Below the pieces are notes generated by a model that saw nothing but the letters and a program-made list of their open reading frames with translations, searched no databases and was not told the origin of the DNA. A stretch of DNA of 64,000 bases from Cyanidioschyzon merolae (taxonomy: Eukaryota). This document shows, in pieces, positions 1,146 through 48,116 of the stretch (position 1 is its first letter; the number at the start of each line of letters is the position of its first letter). The translations under genes and the position numbers were made by a program. The stretch lies in the NCBI GenBank assembly GCA_000091205.1, contig AP006492.2; one strand, 5' to 3'.

Positions 1146-1808
1146 ATGGCTTTTGTTCCGAACTTGTGGGTCCATCGACGTTCTGCAAGGACCCGAGCGC
1201 CAAAGCGAGCTCTCTGTTTACGTGCATCTTCCGTTGAAGAGCGCCCAGCTGCGACGCCGACGCTGCTGCTGGCTTTGCTCGCGGGGAACCGGCTCGGTGC
1301 TTCGTACCGGGCGTCGCGTCGCATCGCAATTCAAAACATTGCTGGACTTTTGGAGTCTACAGCTCTAGAAAAGCGTGAAGGCATTCGTTTTCCTCGCGAC
1401 CTTGGACGTCTCGAAGGTGTTTGGCGACTGTGTTACACCTCCGGCCGTTTGCCAGTGGGTTGCGTCAACAGCTACCAGGTTATCCGCGGCGCTTCGCGAC
1501 AGCTTGCGAACATTGTCGACCTGGCGCTGCCTCTGGCACCGCCGCGGACGGTTTTTCGTCTGTGCATCGAACACACCTTCGACGTTGTGGGTGAACACCG
1601 CATCCGTCTGCGCCAGACTGCCGTGCGGACGGGGATCACCGGTGAGGACGCCGCACCTGACGTGCACTGGCTGCGCTTCCCGCCCGTGCCCATACCCGGC
1701 GTCATGGCCGAGCCCGTTGGATACCTCGATACCATCTACACGGATGAGGATGGTTTGCGAATCAGTCGCGGTGACGGTGGTGAACTTCGTATTTTTGTGA
1801 AGGTGTAG
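1146..1808 (+). CDS. PAP/fibrillin-domain protein (plastid lipid-associated protein family), probably with an N-terminal transit peptide
   Basis: The 220-aa ORF has the family signature GVWRLCYTS toward the N-terminus and the characteristic C-terminus GYLDTIYTDEDGLRISRGDGGELRIFV (compare GWLDTTYLD.DLRI.RGD.G..FVL). Assignment is from memory of PF04755 conservation. Confidence 0.6.
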   Translation: MAFVPNLWVHRRSARTRAPKRALCLRASSVEERPAATPTLLLALLAGNRLGASYRASRRIAIQNIAGLLESTALEKREGIRFPRDLGRLEGVWRLCYTSGRLPVGCVNSYQVIRGASRQLANIVDLALPLAPPRTVFRLCIEHTFDVVGEHRIRLRQTAVRTGITGEDAAPDVHWLRFPPVPIPGVMAEPVGYLDTIYTDEDGLRISRGDGGELRIFVKV

Positions 1809-19877: not shown

Positions 19878-20966
19878 ATGTCAGCGTTTGCTGTGCCTGC
19901 GGCGCACCCTGCGAGGAGGCAGCGCCCGGCGCTAGGACTTGATCGGCCGCTCGTTCCGCGATGGAGTTCGAAACGGCAGGTGCTTTTTCATCGGGGTCGG
20001 CCACTCGTGACCTTTCGGAAACATTTACTAAGTGCGACAGAGAGAGTGTGTCTTAGTGAACAGAGGACGCCTGGCGTTGTCGGGCAACCGGCGCCCGAGA
20101 CTTCCTGGATGCAACGTGCCGCACGGGCGCTCTTGCTAGGTCTGGCGACGGTTAACATATGGACGCCACTTCTGCGTGGATTCAGCCTCGGTGCCGGGCT
20201 GCAGGTACTGCTGGGAGCGCCAGCAGTGAGCGCGGCGAAAACACCGCATGCACGCTACTCGCGCAAAACGCTGAGCGAGAAACTCGCGCAGGTGCCAGTC
20301 TTCGCGGTGACGAATGAGTCTGGGCAACCCTTTTTAGCTGCAATGGAACGTGGACTGCAAGTGGGACTTATTTTCTTCGACCCAGATGATGCGATAAAAA
20401 TGCTCGAGGACCTGAAACGGAGCTCCGGCAAAGAGGCAGAGGATGCACGTATTTTCATTATGGGTCTGGATCGTGCCTTCGAAATGGTGAAGAGCAAACC
20501 GCAGCCGAGCGGGCTTCGCGGACCCCGTGGCGATGAGCTGAAAATGGTCTTCCGTTTCTACCCCAATCAACAACAGCTCGAGTATGCGCGAACTGTGGCG
20601 AAGAAGACAAAACAACCCACTGTACGGGGCGTGCCGTGCTTCGTGGCAAAAGGTCTAACGCTCCGGAAAGGGAAAGAATTCGTGATTCCCATTTTTCTGG
20701 ACAAAAGGGATCTCGATGAGGCATGGAATCGACTGCGTCAGGAGCTTGCAGAGCTTCCCAAGCAGCCAGAGATAGAGGTAGGCGACCTCATCGAGGTGAT
20801 CCTGCGCTTAGAGGAGGCTGCGAAGAATCCTAAGAGTCTGAATGAGACGGAATTACAGGATCTGCGACGAGTGGCGTTCTTTCCCTCGTCAAAAAGTGTC
20901 GAATTCATGAAGAGGGAGTCCGCGAAGCAATTCAAGGGCACTGCTCGAATGCATTCGAGGCCATAA
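19878..20966 (+). CDS. TIC22: Tic22-like protein (plastid protein-import intermembrane-space component)
   Basis: The 362-aa ORF has an N-terminal presequence-like region. The Tic22 signature reads LAQVPVFAVTNESGQPFL...GLIFFDPDDAIKMLEDLK...IFIMGLDRAFEMV...GVPCFVAKGLTLRKGKEFVIPIFLDKRDLDEAWNRL. Confidence 0.7.
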   Translation: MSAFAVPAAHPARRQRPALGLDRPLVPRWSSKRQVLFHRGRPLVTFRKHLLSATERVCLSEQRTPGVVGQPAPETSWMQRAARALLLGLATVNIWTPLLRGFSLGAGLQVLLGAPAVSAAKTPHARYSRKTLSEKLAQVPVFAVTNESGQPFLAAMERGLQVGLIFFDPDDAIKMLEDLKRSSGKEAEDARIFIMGLDRAFEMVKSKPQPSGLRGPRGDELKMVFRFYPNQQQLEYARTVAKKTKQPTVRGVPCFVAKGLTLRKGKEFVIPIFLDKRDLDEAWNRLRQELAELPKQPEIEVGDLIEVILRLEEAAKNPKSLNETELQDLRRVAFFPSSKSVEFMKRESAKQFKGTARMHSRP

Positions 20967-21650
20967 ACTTCGGTTCTATATCAAGCATCTGTTTAGGGTT
21001 CCTGGTGTTCGGACGAACTGCCGATGTACGGCGTTTCGTTTCAGGCACGTACGCTAGGCATCCGAGCACGGATACCGGATGCCGTCGGGACGATCGCTGA
21101 CGCCGTGGTCGTGCGGGGCTGGCCGAGTCGCAGACGCTCCGAGCCGCCGTCTCGAATATCGCATGGCGGATGCGTCGCTTGCGATCGCAGCTGCGGCTTG
21201 CGTCCCTGCGCATCTGCACCACCGTGGAGCGTTCAGCAACATGGACGCCACATGATGCGCTTCCGGCGTCGAGAGTGCGAGCTGCACTCATGCCGAGCCC
21301 CAGAATTCCACTCAGTTCCCTATGGGGACTTTGGTGCGCACGAGCGAGCACCCTGCGAGTACCATTTCCAGCGGGCGCGCATGTTCGCAGCGGGTGCGGT
21401 GCTGCCGTCTTGGCCCCCAACCCGTGCAGCGCTGCGCTGTATGGGGCGTGGTAGGCACGCACAGCAGGCTCGGTGCTCGGAGGATCGCTTGAACGAACCG
21501 TTATCCCCAAATGGGCAAGTCGAGGTCATGGCTGGTTGTACCTGGAGTCATGGGGCGACATCACGGATTCATTCCTCGATACTGGTAAAAATCGCGCACC
21601 CGGTGATCCCTGGTCAGGTTCGAAATGATGGCGCCCCATGTGAAAAAACA

Positions 21651-21679
21651 GGCACGGCACGGCACGGCACGGCACGGCA
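21651..21679. repeat. (GGCAC)n pentanucleotide microsatellite
   Basis: ggcacggcacggcacggcacggcacggca, lying about 120 bp upstream of the permuted tRNA gene. Confidence 0.8.
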
Positions 21680-21801
21680 AAGGCGCCAGCAACGCTGGCC
21701 GCGCATCAGGCTGGCGAATCGCCATCGCATTGCACGGATCGGCGCCGCTTCACCAACCACTTTATATATTGCTCATCGCGATACCATTACATCTGAGCAT
21801 C

Positions 21802-21894
21802 GTCATATGCGTAAGCATGCGCAGGTTCGAATCCTGCCGTCTGCATCTCCTATCGCAGACGTGGCCGAGCGGTCCAAGGCGTGACGTTCAGGTG
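21802..21894 (+). tRNA. Circularly permuted tRNA-Leu(CAG) gene: 3-prime half (21802-21846) encoded upstream of the 5-prime half (21856-21894), with a 9-nt linker
   Basis: The upstream 3-prime half carries the anticodon-stem strand CGTCA (21802-06), a 15-nt variable arm TATGCGTAAGCATGC, T-stem GCAGG, T-loop TTCGAAT, stem CCTGC (B-box GGTTCGAATCC), acceptor 3-prime strand CGTCTGC and discriminator A (21846). After the linker TCTCCTATC, the 5-prime half carries acceptor 5-prime strand GCAGACG, which is perfectly complementary to CGTCTGC. It continues with TG and the class-II D-arm GCC-GAGCGGTCCAA-GGC (A-box TGGCCGAGCGG), then G, anticodon stem TGACG (complementary to CGTCA) and loop TTCAGGT (anticodon CAG). 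GAGC follows, then a T7 run at 21899-21905 that looks like a Pol III terminator. The D-arm and anticodon loop match canonical eukaryotic tRNA-Leu(CAG). A TATA-like tttatatat lies at 21763-21771. Confidence 0.75.
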
Positions 21895-22104
21895 AGCTTT
21901 TTTTCTCGTCAGTTGTTCAATGCACCGGTTCATAGTTAATGAATTGCGCTTGTGAGTTACTCGCGCTTTCTACGGTTTTTATTATCGGTTTTGCGGCGTA
22001 GAATCTCATCAAGCGACACAAAACTCCAAGCAGAGGCGTCGTACCGAGGATAGCGACGACGCGACTCCTGGTGCGGGTTCAGGGGCGAACCTGCTGCGCG
22101 CGCC

Positions 22105-22842
22105 ATGACGAGTCCCGATCCAGCCTGGCACTGGTCAGGGAAACGTCCTACGGGGAGCGTGCTGGTAGTCCCGAACGCGCTTGCGGCCGCCTATGTTCCC
22201 CAGATGGTCTGCGATCTGCTCATAGAGAACCTCGCACTGCCGCACTTGGGCTCCGTCCAAGTGCCCCAGGTGCTTCCGTTTGCGGGTCGCGGGAGGTATA
22301 GCCACACTGATTTTCACTTTCTGAGCCCTGTCGATATGTATGCGTGCCAGGATCTGGCTGTCGTGCAGCATAGGTCTCCGATCGCACGAGGGCGCTCACG
22401 AGAACACGCGTTCCTCCTGTGGAACACCTTCGGCAGATATAGTCGACTTGTGCTGGTTCTGAACAGCATCAGTGCCGTTGCACGTGAATCAGATCGTGCC
22501 CTTAGCGCGCCGCTCGGAAGCGTTTGGTATCTGGCCAATGCACCAGGGCGTGCTTGGGTGGAAGCGCATGCTCCCGAATGGATCGCGCTCAACGAAACGG
22601 ATGTGCTACCAGCGTATTGGCCTCTAGCTCGAGCGAGAGGCTGGATTGCAGCGCTGTTTGAGGCCGCCGCCGCCACGGTTCCTCTCGTCGTCCCGCACGT
22701 GTTCGTGCACGCCGGAGATAACCGTCATGTGGCGGCTAGGCTCGTGGAATCGCTCGCTCGCTGCATGTCTTGGTCATTGGAGGAATGCAAGGAACCGCCG
22801 AGCTGGGCGATCGGTTTCGATGCGAACGGTAACGGAACCTAG
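22105..22842 (+). CDS. Proteasome assembly chaperone 2 (PAC2/PSMG2)-like protein
   Basis: 245 aa. The N-terminal block SVLVVPNALAAAYVPQMVCDLLIENL parallels PSMG2 LLMPAVSVGNVGQLAMDLIISTL. RLVLVLNS matches RVIVLSSS. The C-terminus PPSWAIGFDANGNG matches IPSSWRLLFGSGLP. Similarity is weak and recalled from memory. Confidence 0.4.
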   Translation: MTSPDPAWHWSGKRPTGSVLVVPNALAAAYVPQMVCDLLIENLALPHLGSVQVPQVLPFAGRGRYSHTDFHFLSPVDMYACQDLAVVQHRSPIARGRSREHAFLLWNTFGRYSRLVLVLNSISAVARESDRALSAPLGSVWYLANAPGRAWVEAHAPEWIALNETDVLPAYWPLARARGWIAALFEAAAATVPLVVPHVFVHAGDNRHVAARLVESLARCMSWSLEECKEPPSWAIGFDANGNGT

Positions 22843-24289
22843 CAACCTGACTGCGAGCTACTTGGCACTCGTATATGCTGGTAGAGATGCATTTGCAGGG
22901 ACCAATGCCGGCTTCAGATACCGGGGGAATCAGGTGCCTCCAGGCACGCTATAGCGCCCCCGGATGAACTCTGTCGATGCTTTGGATTGGACGTTTCCGG
23001 AAGCGGGACCCGCACCCCGGCCGAGCAGGCCATAGAGGTGACTCGCGTCTGCACACGGCGACAGGTAGCCTTGTATTGAGAAATGTAGTGTTTATCGGAA
23101 CAGGTCTACTGCCTCAAATGCTGCCAGTTTACTGGTATTGTTCTGGGCAGTTTCCTGGTGAAACAACCGCCAGGCATGACGTGAGCGGAGCGCCCATCGC
23201 TTCTGCTGGTAAACGCGTGACTTGGTTGATCGTAATGCCCGATGCGACGACAAGTGGTGGCTAGGCGAAGATTTCGGAAGCGACAGCAGCTCGCTCGCAA
23301 CTCGCCACGATATCGAGCCACGGACAACGCGGCGCCTGCTGGCAGCGCTTTGTGATACGCCAGATCATTCGCACTCGGAATGCGCTCGAAAAGTGCTGGC
23401 CTCACGGAACGATTCTTCCTGTGCACACGTGCATTTGCTTGATGCGACTCCGTTGCTGGAATGGCGGCTTGATGAGCGATTCCAAGGAAAACTGTGTATG
23501 TGACCGGAGGGCGCGCACGCTGGCAAACACGTCCCGGTGCCGTGAGAAGGGCAGCGAGCGCATGACATGAACGCCGCGGCTCTACACGGAACCTGTTAGG
23601 TGCTTCTGTCTGGTAGCTTGGAAATGTAGACGATGCTAAAGAGCGGCTCCACGTTGGCGTACGGCTGACTGCGATGTATCTCGATGAGGCGTTCCTGGTA
23701 GGGGTACTTTCAAGAATGGTGGTTTCTATCTCGATCATTGTACCCAGCGGTTCCCCGCTGTCGTATCGCTAAAGTCGATGCAGCTGTCGGAAGCCTCTCT
23801 GGGGTATTTACTTTCGAGAATAGCGGATTTCTAGGCGGGCAAAACTTCGTATTGCGAGATGGCTCTCCGAATGGCGCGGCTGCATGTAGTTCACCAGGGC
23901 ACCTCTGCGACACCGGGACCACACATCTCGCGGTTTATCTTCGAAGAGGCTCGGCGTTTCTAAATGCAGCATCTGCATCGCCGCAAGATGGGTCTCTCTT
24001 CCGCTGGCCACACGTGCCGCCTGGATATCCATGACAAGGATGCGATCTGCGTCTAGATCTGAGCCTTAGAGCGTTCGGCCTGCACGCGATCTTGGTCAGT
24101 GTCCTTCATGGCGCTGTTGTGTGCAACAGCGCTGCGGAAATGGACTCGTGCGAGACTAAAATGGAACAGGTCCTCTAAATCGGACATATACAATAAAGTT
24201 GGGGTTTTCTTCCCATTATGATGAATAACAGGTTTTGCGGGCTTGTTCAGTGACGAGTTCATCCCGTCGTCTCTATCTCTCGCTCTCAT

Positions 24290-43047: not shown

Positions 43048-45920
43048 CAGAGGTGTCGCAGGAAACGCCCCAGAGCGCAGCGTTCAGCGTTCGGTGCTGC
43101 GCTTGCGAGGGCCATGCTGCGTTAGCGGTAAACTATGTTTTAGTCTTGGCTACGAGCCAGATCTATTTACCGCTTAGGGCATGTCCAGACGTGCACTGCT
43201 CCGTTGCACTCAGGATGTGAGCCGCTTTGCAGCCGCGTTGGAACACCGACCCGGAGCGCTTCTGGCACTTGACGTTGGTCGGCGAAAAATTGGCGTAGCT
43301 GTTTCGGATACATAGTAAGTCTTCTTTCGTGCTGATCATTCCGTATGGGAGCACGGACTGGACAGATGGACTCCGCTGAACACCAGCGAGGTGGAACAAG
43401 GCCAAGCACTCACTCGACAACGTTGTCCAGACAAAGTTGTCTATGACGCATGATCCGTGGTCGGGTATTATAGAGCCTTGTGAGAGCGAATGAAGACCGA
43501 TTTTAGCTATGCTGCACCTTATCTGTTGTTTGGGTGCATGCAAGTGCGCTGGTCTCCGACAATTACATTGTTCAGACACTAACCTGTGGAAGCGATCCCG
43601 GTCGGTTAGTCGCATTGCTGCTTTCCCGCTCGGCACACTAGTTCGATATGGAGACCCCGTCCACGTCCAGTACAAGCTCGTGCAGCAGCTGCTTGACACA
43701 ATTGCAAAATACAGCGTGGTTGCCCTGGTCTCCGGATATCCGCTGGAGCTTAGCAGGTCGCGAGAAGGACCCTCCTGCTCTATGGTCCGGTCGTTTCTCT
43801 CATCGCTAACGGTGACACCTGAGCTAATGTGTCGAGTGGTGCCGACGTTGTGTCTGCCTTTGCCATGTTTGCTGTGGGATGAGCGATTTTCGTCGGTTTC
43901 AGCGCAGTGGTACCAGTATGTTGAAGAGCCCGGACGCCGCGGCCACGTGCGTCCGCTGCCGCAGTGGAAGAAACGTGGTATCGATGCGTATGCCGCGCTC
44001 ATTATTTTACGTGGCGTTCTGGAATGTGACTGGGCGCGATACCAGGCACCGCCGCGGACTCTCTAAAAGGCCTGAGGGAAGGGCGGCGGCACAGATGCGA
44101 AAGCGCATGCTCTATGTGCCTGCGGTGTATGTCCATGCTGCGGTGCGTTGGCGAGACCCAGCGACCGTTCGCTTCTCGGTAATTGGAGTAGGTGACGGAG
44201 GCATTGCCAGCTGCAGAGCCTATGACGGTATCGTTAGAATCCCGAAGGTATTCACCGCGAAAATGCTGTTGCAAGCAATGCGGCTTTTGTGTTTGGCGAT
44301 GAAGGGACCACGCGGGCGCTAGGAGCGGTATCTCTCGGAGCTGCCTGTATGCGCCTGAACGCATGCGATGCTCGTGATCACCAGGTCCGCCTCTTAGCCG
44401 ACTGAATATCTGCGCTCGCGGAAAAGAAGCCCACCGAACAAGAATGAGCGCGCACGTACCGTCCAGTGGAAAGCGGACGCCAGTGTGCGGCCATATCTAC
44501 GGTAAGGATGCAGTCACGAGTGTTACGGTGCAGAAGCGAGATAGTTAAGCACATTCCCCGAGAAGCGCAAACCCCGGGAGCCGCTGCGCAAGCAGCTGCA
44601 TCTGTGCGAGATTTAAATGGAAAACTGGACTGCTTGCTCTGTTCTTCACGTTCGATTTCTGTCCGAATCGTTTTAGATGTACCGCGTCGACATTCGAATA
44701 GCAGCTACATGGACTTGCGGATTCATGCGTAGGTGTAGGATTCCCGGTCGCATGGTTCTCGGAGTCGCTCCTTCGAATATCTCTGCCGCTGGCACTCGTC
44801 ACGTCATCGGAGCCAGGCTGATTCGCGACGCCCTCACACGAGGGATCGTAAAGCAACCGATATCGTCACCCAATGCATACGTTGAAGCCTCCACGCTTCT
44901 CCTTTCCCTACGTATAGTGCGCACGAATCATGCATGCTTCTTGATTTCGATCTTTGTGTTTCACAACAACTCGTGGGTACAGGGGTTCGCGCCGATCGGC
45001 TGACGACGGGAAACCTCGACATCGTCGCTTGACGACCTGATCACGAGCTCCTGCCAAATGTTCGCTAAAAATATTACGTCAAATAACCGAATTCGTTCGA
45101 AAGACGAATACTTCTCTGCTTGTGGACGTTGACGAAACCATATTTGGCAGCAGTTTCGTGATACCTGTTTCGCAAAAGAAGCCCGTGATTGTGGACAATG
45201 CTGCCCATCACGAAACGGAGGTCGCCATCCAGAAGAGCCATCTGTACCCGGCACGGGTAACACCGGGCGATGAAGCGAGCCGTCACCCGTCACAACGCGG
45301 CGTCCGGGAAAGTCGGTATTAGGGACATTTAGGAACCCTTGACCCCCCGTCAAGTATCAGCGCGACAGAGGCTGCACAGCTGCTGTTTACAATAAGATGA
45401 ACATGGCAAGCGAAGCATAGATCGCAACTTCAGCTCATGCATGTGTTGCCTAGGAAGCAGCCGGAAGCAGCAAAATCGGAACTTGAACGATGCGATCAAC
45501 CTATCTCAACTGCTGACAACAGTACTGGACATACGGGACAGACCAGCATACTTAAAGTCGGAAACGACAGGGAGGCAAAGGAAGCAGCCCACGAATGTTG
45601 GCACTCATAACACCGACGTAAGACACCTGAACTTTCGCCTGTACGCAAGTCACAGGGTACGTCTGTCGCCCTGCACGGCAACGTACGCGCAGCGCGACGA
45701 CCGCAGATTGAAGCTACGCGCGCGTCTGCCTTGAGGCGACTCCATGACTAGCGACATAAATGTACATAGTAAAACAAAAGTACACTGACATGAACTTTTT
45801 CTGGGCCTCGAGCAGAGGCGCCCGGCGGGCCTGCAGCGCTCCATGGCAAACGTTGCTATATCGCGAACGGCAAGGTTTAGAAGCAAGACGGCGCTGCTGC
45901 GAACGCAAACTTAGGATACC

Positions 45921-48116
45921 ATGTGGGCCGCATTTGTCTTTTTACCAACGTCACGCTTTCTTCAAAGGGCGTCTCCCCCGTGCCCTAGCTCGAATCTATG
46001 TGGAAGACAGCGATCTGCAGGGCGCGTGTCAGCGGGGACGGCGTCGCTGCGTGCGCAAGAGGGCACCACGAACACACCTCCGCGAAAGCTTTCACCCGTC
46101 GAAGGCATAAAAGAGCGCTCGAACCAGCTTCGCTATCCTCTCATAGACGAGCTGAGAAACGACGAGATTTTCGTCTCTGGGGACGCAGGCCAAATACTCA
46201 AGTTTCACGGCACCTATCAGCAGGACGATCGGGATCAGCGCACCAAGGGTGAACAGAAGAAATATCAGTTTATGCTTCGTTTGAAGATGCCGGCAGGCGA
46301 ACTGCCGGCGAGCTTCTATCGCGTTCTCGACGACCTGTCGGAGCAGTATGGGAACAGCACGCTGCGGGCCACAACGCGGAGCACTTTCCAGATCCACGGT
46401 GTTCTCAAGGGGAACCTCAAGCACGTCATGGCAACGATCATGAACGCCGGTGGCAGCACTGCAGGCGCTTGCGGCGACATCAACCGGAACGTTATTACCA
46501 CGCCAGCGCCGTACCAGAGTCCGCCCTACCAACACGTTCGCTTCATTGCCAAAATGCTCGCTGAGGTATTCGCGCCACAGACGGGTGCGCTCTGTGAGGC
46601 ATGGCTCGACGGCGAGAAGGCGGCTTCAATTGAATACTGGAAGAGGGACATCGATATGGATGAAGTGAAACGAATACGTGAGCACGACAATGGACGAGGA
46701 CAGGTGTTCAGCGGCAAAGAGGAGCCTATCTACGGAGAAACCTACCTGCCTCGCAAGTTTAAGATGGCCGTGACTGTTCCCGGTGATAACAGTGTCGACA
46801 TCTTCACGAACGATATCGGCATCGTCGTGCTCATGGATGATAACTATGTGTTACAGGGATACAACATTCTCGTCGGTGGCGGTATGGGACGCACCCACAA
46901 CAAGGAGGCAACCTTTCCACGCCTTGCGGATCCTCTCGGATTCGTTCCGCCTGATTCGCTTTTCGATACCATCAAGGCTATCGTCGCCGCGCAGCGCGAC
47001 CACGGTGATCGGCAGGTCCGCACAAACGCCCGAATGAAGTATCTTGTACACCGTCTGGGTATCGACGGTTTCCGTGATCTCGTTCGCTCTTACATGACCG
47101 ACAATGGTGCCGCGCTACAACCGTGGCGTCCGATCCCGGCCTGGGAGCACCGCGACTATCTCGGCTGGCACGAAGACGGTACCGGCAAGCTCTTCTACGG
47201 GCTGCTGATTGACAACGGGCGGGTGCGCGGCCCGCTGAAAAAAGCGCTTCGCCAGATCGTAGACGAAATATCGCCTGGTATGATCATGACGCCGCACCAA
47301 AACCTGCTTTTAACCAACATCATGCCAGAGCAACGGCAAGTCGTCGAGGGCATCCTGGCCCAGCACCAGGTCTACCGCGACGTGCGGCACATTGATCAAC
47401 TGGTGCGCAAGGCGATGGCATGTCCGGCGTTGCCACTCTGCCCGCTGGCGATCACAGAGGCTGAACGTGTGATGCCCCAGTACCTCGAGCGCATTCGCGA
47501 GATTCTCGGCAAGGCTGGCATAGCACCAAGCGAATCGTTCTTTACGCGCATGACCGGATGCCCGAACGGATGCAGCCGTCCCTACATGGCAGAATTGGCC
47601 CTGGTCGGCAGTGGACCCAACGAGGTATACCAGCTCTGGCTGGGTGGCTCGCCCAACCAAACCCGGCTCGCTTGGCCGTTTGCAGACCGGCTATCATTGA
47701 ACGAGCTCGATCGCGTGCTCGAAGCGCTCTTCGTTTTTTGGCGGCAAGAACGCCGACCTGCTGAGGCTTTCGGAGATTTTTGCGATCGCATCGGGAAAAA
47801 CGGACTTGAGCAATTCGTCTCCCAGTATGGCGAGGGGCATGCGAATGGCGATACCTCGAAGGCACGCGCAAGTACATCACGCCTATCCAAGAGCACCGCA
47901 AACAACGAAGAGAAAGTTCCGCTGCGACCCCGCGTCTCCCTGCGCCCAGCGGTGCATGCGCGTCTGCGAACGATGGCGGCCCGAGCTGGTGTTCCGCTCA
48001 AAGTCCTCGTGGATGAGATTCTGACCAAGTTCATCGCCTCCCCTGAATCCGAGAAGATGTTCGGGGGCCGTATCTCTTCGGCGATCAAGACAGATGGGAA
48101 TACTGCGATGGACTGA
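45921..48116 (+). CDS. Ferredoxin-dependent sulfite reductase (siroheme/4Fe-4S hemoprotein), with a presequence and an ~90-aa C-terminal extension containing an RHH-like motif
   Basis: NIR_SIR-type blocks are present: ILKFHGTYQQDDRD, MLRLKMPAGELPASFYRVLDDLSEQYGNSTLRATTRSTFQIHGV, GDINRNV, and the Cys cluster TGCPNGCSRPYMAELALVGSGPNEVYQLWLGG. The C-terminus reads ...RPRVSLRPAVHARLRTMAARAGVPLKVLVDEILTKFIAS. Confidence 0.9.
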   Translation: MWAAFVFLPTSRFLQRASPPCPSSNLCGRQRSAGRVSAGTASLRAQEGTTNTPPRKLSPVEGIKERSNQLRYPLIDELRNDEIFVSGDAGQILKFHGTYQQDDRDQRTKGEQKKYQFMLRLKMPAGELPASFYRVLDDLSEQYGNSTLRATTRSTFQIHGVLKGNLKHVMATIMNAGGSTAGACGDINRNVITTPAPYQSPPYQHVRFIAKMLAEVFAPQTGALCEAWLDGEKAASIEYWKRDIDMDEVKRIREHDNGRGQVFSGKEEPIYGETYLPRKFKMAVTVPGDNSVDIFTNDIGIVVLMDDNYVLQGYNILVGGGMGRTHNKEATFPRLADPLGFVPPDSLFDTIKAIVAAQRDHGDRQVRTNARMKYLVHRLGIDGFRDLVRSYMTDNGAALQPWRPIPAWEHRDYLGWHEDGTGKLFYGLLIDNGRVRGPLKKALRQIVDEISPGMIMTPHQNLLLTNIMPEQRQVVEGILAQHQVYRDVRHIDQLVRKAMACPALPLCPLAITEAERVMPQYLERIREILGKAGIAPSESFFTRMTGCPNGCSRPYMAELALVGSGPNEVYQLWLGGSPNQTRLAWPFADRLSLNELDRVLEALFVFWRQERRPAEAFGDFCDRIGKNGLEQFVSQYGEGHANGDTSKARASTSRLSKSTANNEEKVPLRPRVSLRPAVHARLRTMAARAGVPLKVLVDEILTKFIASPESEKMFGGRISSAIKTDGNTAMD

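Follow-up and report, generated by a model that had tools for sequence, protein, structure and literature searches.

Results

We identified a circularly permuted tRNA-Leu(CAG) gene at positions 21800-21892 of the window, a 64,000-nt stretch of Cyanidioschyzon merolae DNA. This gene is already known, and it is confirmed rather than new. The locus is very probably the single nuclear gene for the cytosolic tRNA-Leu(CAG) of C. merolae 10D, permuted at a type II junction (37/38). Its gene order, canonical product, junction fold, flanking signals and invariance among strains are established in the present analysis. Three other readings, namely a silent relic, a coding sequence and a tRNA-like RNA that is not ligated, together hold only a very small share of the probability.

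Organization of the gene

As shown in Table 1, both halves of the tRNA are encoded on the plus strand and the 3' half is placed upstream of its 5' counterpart, which is the order of a type II permuted gene. The unit is flanked by a TATA-like box within 50 bp upstream and a T-stretch downstream, the arrangement expected of such a gene. The original prediction had placed the TATA-like box about 30 nt upstream of the 3' half, and it is found there. The sequence between the halves contains no T-run and no TATA sequence when read through, and thus no promoter or terminator separates them.

All elements listed in the original prediction were located on the plus strand by sequence reading and string search, but every coordinate given for them was one base too high. 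The two pairs of strands that it had called perfect complements, GCAGACG with CGTCTGC (7 bp) and TGACG with CGTCA (5 bp), are indeed so. Since a T also follows G37 in the trailer, either placement of the split fits the sequence; the coordinates in Table 1 use the published 37/38 junction.

Table 1. Features of the permuted tRNA-Leu(CAG) locus (window coordinates).
Feature	Position	Strand	Remark
TATA-like element TTTATATAT	21761-21769	+	ends 30 nt 5' of the tRNA 3' half; presumed upstream RNA polymerase III promoter (putative role)
Proximal leader	21790-21799	+	CATCTGAG (21790-97) pairs with anticodon loop and trailer; CA (21798-99) and T38 form a 3-nt bulge at the 3' cleavage site
tRNA 3' half, positions 38-73	21800-21845	+	starts with T38 under the published 37/38 junction
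T38	21800	+	first base of the 3' half
Anticodon-stem 3' strand CGTCA	21801-21805	+	string search
Long variable arm TATGC-GTAA-GCATG	21806-21819	+	string search
T arm GCAGG-TTCGAAT-CCTGC	21821-21837	+	string search
Acceptor 3' strand CGTCTGC	21838-21844	+	string search
Discriminator A	21845	+	CCA not encoded
9-nt intervening sequence TCTCCTATC	21846-21854	+	length equals the published 9 bp
tRNA 5' half, positions 1-37	21855-21892	+	ends with G37 under the published 37/38 junction
Acceptor 5' strand GCAGACG	21855-21861	+	string search
D arm with G18G19	21862-21881	+	D stem GCC/GGC at 21864-66 and 21878-80
Anticodon-stem 5' strand TGACG	21882-21886	+	string search
Anticodon loop TTCAGG(T), U32 U33 C34 A35 G36 G37, anticodon CAG	21887-21893 (TTCAGG 21887-92)	+	
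Trailer TGAGC	21893-21897 (GAGC 21894-21897)	+	first two bases lengthen the leader:loop helix
T7 run	21898-21904	+	presumed RNA polymerase III terminator

The unit is located between a Tic22-like gene (BAM80241, 19878-20966), from which it is some 0.9 kb downstream, and a PAC2-domain gene (22105-22842). Three proteins encoded in the window are 100% identical to the C. merolae 10D proteins BAM80241, BAM80251 and BAM80233. Long ORFs are sparse across the window for DNA of 57% GC. Among the ORF products, Pfam matches identified Tic22-like, RETICULATA-related, F-box/SPOC, cyclin, WD40, sulfite reductase, ProRS and FTHFS proteins, a set that points to a photosynthetic eukaryote with few introns.

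Rearranged product and chance controls

When the 5' half was joined to the 3' half, the resulting 84-nt molecule was called tRNA-Leu(cag) by ARAGORN. As originally predicted, it is a class-II tRNA in which all stems are paired: the acceptor stem is a perfect 7 bp, the anticodon and T stems have 5 bp each, and the variable arm is of class II (ARAGORN and sequence reading). The consensus bases U8, G18G19, U33 and U54U55C56, the T loop TTCGAAT and the discriminator A are all present, as is the pair G15:C48, and CCA is not encoded. The rearranged halves therefore make a canonical cloverleaf.

The native sequence behaved differently. ARAGORN found no tRNA in the window in its native order, whether introns were allowed or not. 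With Rfam, the window as a whole had no match at the gathering threshold, and the search at E<=10 near the site brought up nothing relevant.

Two controls measured how often rearrangement alone produces a tRNA call. In the fixed-geometry control, all 127,814 segments of 93 nt on both strands were rearranged as 46, 9 and 38 nt. tRNA calls were obtained at offsets 21796-21803 only, plus the same site from the opposite strand. In the geometry-free scan, about 144,000 doubled segments of 90-170 nt were submitted to ARAGORN with an "intron" permitted at the artificial junction, and 99 of 102 hits were the permuted tRNA-Leu locus. The remaining three, at ~1497-1626 (Cys-gca), ~43073-43212 (Asn-att with intron) and ~47637-47756 (Lys-ctt), are single calls, have mismatched stems and aberrant loops and were rejected as false positives. 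No second tRNA was found in the 64-kb window by ARAGORN, Rfam or either rearrangement control. The permuted-gene signal at 21800-21892 is far beyond chance.

Both molecules fold with better energies than dinucleotide shuffles: the precursor has z = -2.8 and the assembled tRNA z = -2.4. The unconstrained MFE folds of both molecules miss the exact D and anticodon arms. Unconstrained MFE folds of tRNAs commonly fail to give the exact arms.

Processing junction

We folded the region 21786-21899 with the cloverleaf enforced as a constraint. In the best constrained fold (-40.6 kcal/mol), the leader segment CAUCUGAG (21790-97) pairs with UUCAGGUG (21887-94) to form an 8-bp helix. The partner strand consists of U32 to G37 and the first two trailer bases, and the helix has a U32·G pair where the anticodon-intron pair sits. 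A 3-nt bulge, C-A-U38 (21798-800), adjoins the anticodon stem. As modelled, this junction is a relaxed hBH motif at 37/38, that is, a junction of the BHB type. The relaxed hBH at 37/38 is the usual substrate of the eukaryal splicing endonuclease (Soma 2014, PMC3978253).

A strict hBHBh' fold can also be drawn, with a 4-bp central helix, a second bulge G36-G37-U and a 2-bp outer helix, at -31.4 kcal/mol. Because this fold is about 9 kcal/mol less stable, the 5' cleavage site (between G37 and U) is placed inside a helix in the best model.

The original prediction had pointed to complementary leader and trailer motifs as a possible bulge-helix-bulge structure. These motifs, TGCTCA (21770-75), TGAGCA (21794-99) and TGAGC (21893-97), are all present. 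Their pairing at the junction was evaluated along with the strict hBHBh' fold, and both were rejected, the single-bulge fold being about 9 kcal/mol better. TGCTCA adjoins the TATA-like box, and for it to pair with the trailer, transcription would have to start at or before 21771. The hexamer is probably 5' of the transcription start, and its pairing is unlikely to matter.

The order of elements also admits a reading in which the two ends are never joined. Anticodon-stem 3' strand, T arm, acceptor hairpin, D arm, anticodon-stem 5' strand and a closing end helix follow one another in YrlA and in permuted tmRNA as they do here. In YrlA and permuted tmRNA the closing helix is made from both ends of the RNA. 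On that pattern the locus would encode a tRNA-like non-coding RNA, either a YrlA-type Y-RNA module or a two-piece tmRNA-like RNA, with its ends left open at the anticodon side. We consider this reading extremely improbable. YrlA occurs in bacterial or phage genomes, usually near rsr/rtcB, whereas the genome here is eukaryotic and the neighbouring genes (Tic22, PAC2, F-box, cyclin) are too. The YrlA family (Rfam RF02553) gave no match at E<=10 in 20000-24000 and none at the gathering threshold in the window. No tmRNA family matched at E<=10 in 20000-24000 either, and ARAGORN, run for tmRNA on the native and on the rearranged sequence, made no call. The acceptor pair at 3:70 is A3-U70 and not the G3:U70 of tmRNA, and the anticodon arm is full, with a complete loop that keeps U33, CAG and G37. 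Circular intermediates are moreover documented for the permuted gene class in C. merolae (PMC3978253).

Proposed processing pathway

Under the permuted-gene reading, we propose the following route to the mature tRNA. The start of RNA polymerase III would be set by the upstream TATA-like box and not by the inverted A and B boxes. One linear transcript would carry the leader, the 3' half, the 9-nt intervening sequence, the 5' half and the trailer, and would end at the T-run. This precursor may fold as a cloverleaf in which the acceptor stem is closed by a loop made of the discriminator and the 9-nt sequence. Its anticodon stem would be lengthened by the helix that the leader forms with the anticodon loop and trailer, the 3-nt bulge lying on the 38 side (hBH). 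The tRNA-splicing endonuclease (cmSen2/34/54) would then cut off leader and trailer, and tRNA ligase would seal G37 to U38, which makes the RNA circular. The 9-nt sequence, which would close the acceptor stem in this circular intermediate as well, would be excised by RNase P and tRNase Z so that the stem opens, and CCA would then be added.

The single transcript, endonuclease cleavage, the circle, removal by RNase P and tRNase Z, CCA addition and aminoacylation would thus follow what the literature describes for this gene class. The enzyme that acts at each site of the Leu(CAG) precursor is the one we infer from that class.

Identity with the published gene

Circularly permuted tRNA genes were reportedly discovered in C. 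merolae, by Soma et al. in 2007 in Science 318:450. The original prediction had named Cyanidioschyzon as one of the few lineages that carry such genes, and this agrees with the source of the window, C. merolae 10D, for which eleven permuted tRNA genes are listed in Table 1 of Soma 2014 (PMC3978253). One entry of that table is Leu(CAG): it is of type II (37/38), lacks an intron and has an intervening sequence of 9 bp (Soma 2014, PMC3978253). The anatomy found here is the same in each of these respects, so that the call of a circularly permuted tRNA-Leu(CAG) gene stands. The intervening sequences of the C. merolae permuted genes range from 7 to 74 nt, with 9 nt for Leu(CAG) (Soma 2014, PMC3978253). 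In most C. merolae tRNA genes the 50 bp upstream contain a TATA-like sequence, and most of the permuted genes have a T-stretch downstream (Soma 2014, PMC3978253).

C. merolae has 43 tRNA genes, which serve 42 anticodons, and only Gly(CCC) is duplicated; together the 43 are enough to decode all codons (Soma 2014, PMC3978253). It follows from this literature count that the permuted gene would be the sole Leu(CAG) gene, with no conventional tRNA-Leu(CAG) copy elsewhere in the genome (PMC3978253). The locus is almost certainly the published C. merolae Leu(CAG) gene, an identification that is based on the matching anatomy and the single-copy status and not on coordinates.

As a class, the permuted tRNAs of C. 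merolae are functional, according to northern and aminoacylation evidence (Soma 2014, PMC3978253). RT-PCR and sequencing of the class gave the linear permuted precursor, a circular intermediate that keeps the intervening sequence, and the mature CCA-tailed tRNA (PMC3978253).

Strain comparison and overlapping ORF

Hot-spring metagenomes contain eight syntenic loci (L001-L008), whose identity to the window is 98.5-99.4%. The tRNA locus was aligned over 261 columns with all of these loci except L002 (flank identity 99.4%). Seven columns are variable, and all seven lie outside 21785-21900: there are 0 substitutions inside this interval and 7 in the 145 flanking columns. If substitutions were uniform, the chance of no variable column in 21785-21900 would be about 0.02. 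The TATA-like box and the proximal leader are invariant among the strain loci. This pattern fits purifying selection on the unit as a whole, the linker and the proximal leader included. The strains are too similar (98.5-99.4%) for covariation to show in L001-L008.

The T7 run is TTTCTTT in L001, L003 and L004, which reflects a T-to-C change at window position 21901 (about three to four environmental strains). An unbroken run of 7 T is thus not strictly required. The variant may bear on the number of T residues that RNA polymerase III of C. merolae needs for termination.

In the window strain, an uninterrupted 286-aa ORF (21024-21884, plus strand) runs over the tRNA unit, and on this account the sequence could be read as part of a protein gene whose tRNA-like features are incidental. 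We give that reading almost no weight. Pfam gave no match for the ORF, and the protein collection has no entry with its exact sequence. Its frame is also not kept among strains. A (GGCAC)n microsatellite (21651-21680) and an A-run (21644-21649) differ in length among C. merolae strains. Compared with the window, this region has a 5-nt deletion in L001, L003 and L004, a 4-nt deletion with a longer A-run in L005, and a 10-nt deletion in L006-L008. As these indels are not multiples of three, the ORF ends in three different frames among strains, and in L008 an earlier frameshift occurs at 143 aa. The nucleotides of the tRNA unit are invariant even so. The ORF at 21024-21884 probably does not represent a genuine coding sequence, at the 3' end at least.

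The invariance of the unit also bears on whether it could be a silent relic, in which a decayed tandem duplication has left the 3' half from one tRNA-Leu and the 5' half from the copy after it, with no expression or processing. One origin discussed for permuted genes is a tandem duplication that then lost its outer halves, and Soma 2014 has a section on scenarios (PMC3978253). However, each of the two boundaries is exactly at 37/38, the leader and the anticodon loop are complementary, and the unit is flanked by a TATA-like box and a T-run. No substitutions are found in the unit across strains, and the flanks vary. According to the literature, this is the only gene with a CAG anticodon among the 43 that suffice for all codons (PMC3978253), and the permuted tRNAs of C. 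merolae are expressed and aminoacylated (PMC3978253). We therefore regard a relic as very unlikely and retain the functional permuted gene.

Candidate permuted tRNA-Leu-like loci outside the window

Metagenome contigs were scanned with the pattern GGTTCRAATCC N{21,50} TGGCCGAGYGGT, which describes a T arm, a short gap and a class-II D arm. Ordinary tandem tRNA genes accounted for 100 of the 125 matches listed, and no cyanidiophyte orthologue was present among the matches listed.

Also among the matches listed was a candidate permuted class-II tRNA-Leu(UAA), L083, at 1270-1400 (plus strand) of contig Ga0208427_1028509 (36% GC). In its upstream part the anticodon arm (TTTCC-ATTAAAA-GGAGT) is intact and is joined by a variable arm, a T arm and the acceptor 3' strand. 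Behind these, a 5-nt linker (TATAA) leads to the acceptor 5' strand and the D arm. The junction is at about 26/27. The leader GTAAGCA..GATATA is complementary to the trailer TATATC..TGCTTAC. When rearranged, the parts give a clean tRNA-Leu(UAA). The candidate heads a cluster of four normal tRNAs (Leu-CAA, Lys, Glu and Leu-UAA). Neither ARAGORN nor Rfam gave a native call over it, and no viral relative or Pfam domain was found for L083.

A scan of viral contigs for the same signature gave L156:9680-9800, L162:690-810, L186:1420-1540 and L220:8730-8850, all on the plus strand. L156 and L220 are GVMAG giant-virus MAGs, and all four loci lie amid ordinary tRNAs in large same-strand clusters. They share one layout. 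In order, it has the leader TAGTTTCA, a conserved ACAGCA, the variable arm, the T arm and the acceptor 3' strand; a 3-5-nt loop leads on to the acceptor 5' strand and a class-II D arm, and an A-rich spacer and the trailer TGAAACTA complete it. None of the four matched an Rfam family.

The five side loci are on AT-rich contigs. Their acceptor stems, T stems and leader/trailer helices vary in sequence with complementarity kept. A canonical anticodon arm (UAA) is clear in L220 and L083 only, and the ARAGORN models for L156, L162 and L186 are inconsistent. In L220 and L083 the split is at about 26/27, which is between the D arm and the anticodon stem. A specific follow-up scan gave no additional members of the set. 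The five loci are tRNA-Leu-like, permuted and possibly related. A 26/27 junction is absent from types I-V of the 2014 catalogue (Soma 2014, PMC3978253). The category itself is known, since the prasinoviruses BpV1 and BpV2 were reported earlier to carry a permuted tRNA (PMC3673656). That a permuted tRNA-Leu architecture recurs in five unrelated contigs, giant viruses included, with an uncatalogued junction at about 26/27, is a tentative proposal that we find rather doubtful. If the side loci were functional, permuted tRNA-Leu genes would be more widespread than thought, would extend to giant viruses and would include an uncatalogued junction type.

In 13 further loci (L016, L024, L026, L032, L040, L059, L062, L064, L075, L080, L084, L113 and L128), a tmRNA gene is followed 3-27 nt on by a tRNA with anticodon CAU. 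These are AT-rich metagenome contigs of organelle- or bacteria-like character. In 12 of them the CAU tRNA measures 83-87 nt and has both a long variable arm and a D arm of class-II type; the exception is L024, with a call of 74 nt. A class-II-type tRNA with a CAU anticodon beside tmRNA is unusual. The Rfam match to tmRNA covers only 63-69 nt in L059, L062 and L080, corresponding to the tRNA-like domain without the tag region.

Discussion

In permuted tRNA genes an essential RNA is stored in scrambled order and restored via a circular intermediate by ordinary splicing and end-processing enzymes. Such genes escape standard tRNA finders, and both ARAGORN and Rfam miss the Leu(CAG) gene. The rearrangement controls used here are a simple and specific screen for them. 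The value of the Leu(CAG) locus is one of confirmation: a published gene was recovered from raw sequence alone, together with its promoter, terminator and junction. The locus itself moves no open question forward, and nothing novel is left there.

Several known systems resemble the Leu(CAG) gene. Permuted two-piece tmRNA genes are reportedly found in alpha-proteobacteria and others, as described by Keiler et al. in 2000. In these genes too, the piece with the acceptor 3' strand comes upstream of the one with the 5' strand, and processing opens the acceptor hairpin. In contrast, they are bacterial, their pieces stay unligated, and they have no anticodon arm and the G3:U70 alanine identity, none of which is true of the Leu(CAG) gene.

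In the archaeon Thermofilum pendens, the tRNA-iMet and tRNA-Tyr genes share circular permutation and processing at a BHB motif (Chan et al. 2011, PMC3218864). Unlike the Leu(CAG) gene, they have the junction at 59/60 in the T loop, encode CCA and contain an extra intron at 37/38 (PMC3978253). The Bathycoccus prasinoviruses BpV1 and BpV2 carry a permuted tRNA gene as well, as reported by Michely et al. 2013 (PMC3673656), but in a viral genome; this case bears on the viral side loci described above.

The closest relatives are the other type II genes: Gln(CTG), Thr(CGT), Thr(AGT) and Gly(CCC) of C. merolae, Ser, Leu(TAA), Cys and iMet of Ostreococcus/Micromonas, and Ser of the Bigelowiella natans nucleomorph (PMC3978253). 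They have in common with Leu(CAG) the 3' half first, the 37/38 junction, a short linker, a junction of the hBH type and a bias to class-II tRNAs (PMC3978253). They differ in anticodon and lineage, and their intervening sequences are 5 to 64 bp long (PMC3978253). With the published C. merolae Leu(CAG) gene itself, the locus shares the organism, the anticodon, the 37/38 junction, the 9-bp linker, the lack of an intron, the TATA-like box and the T-stretch, and no difference between the two is detectable.
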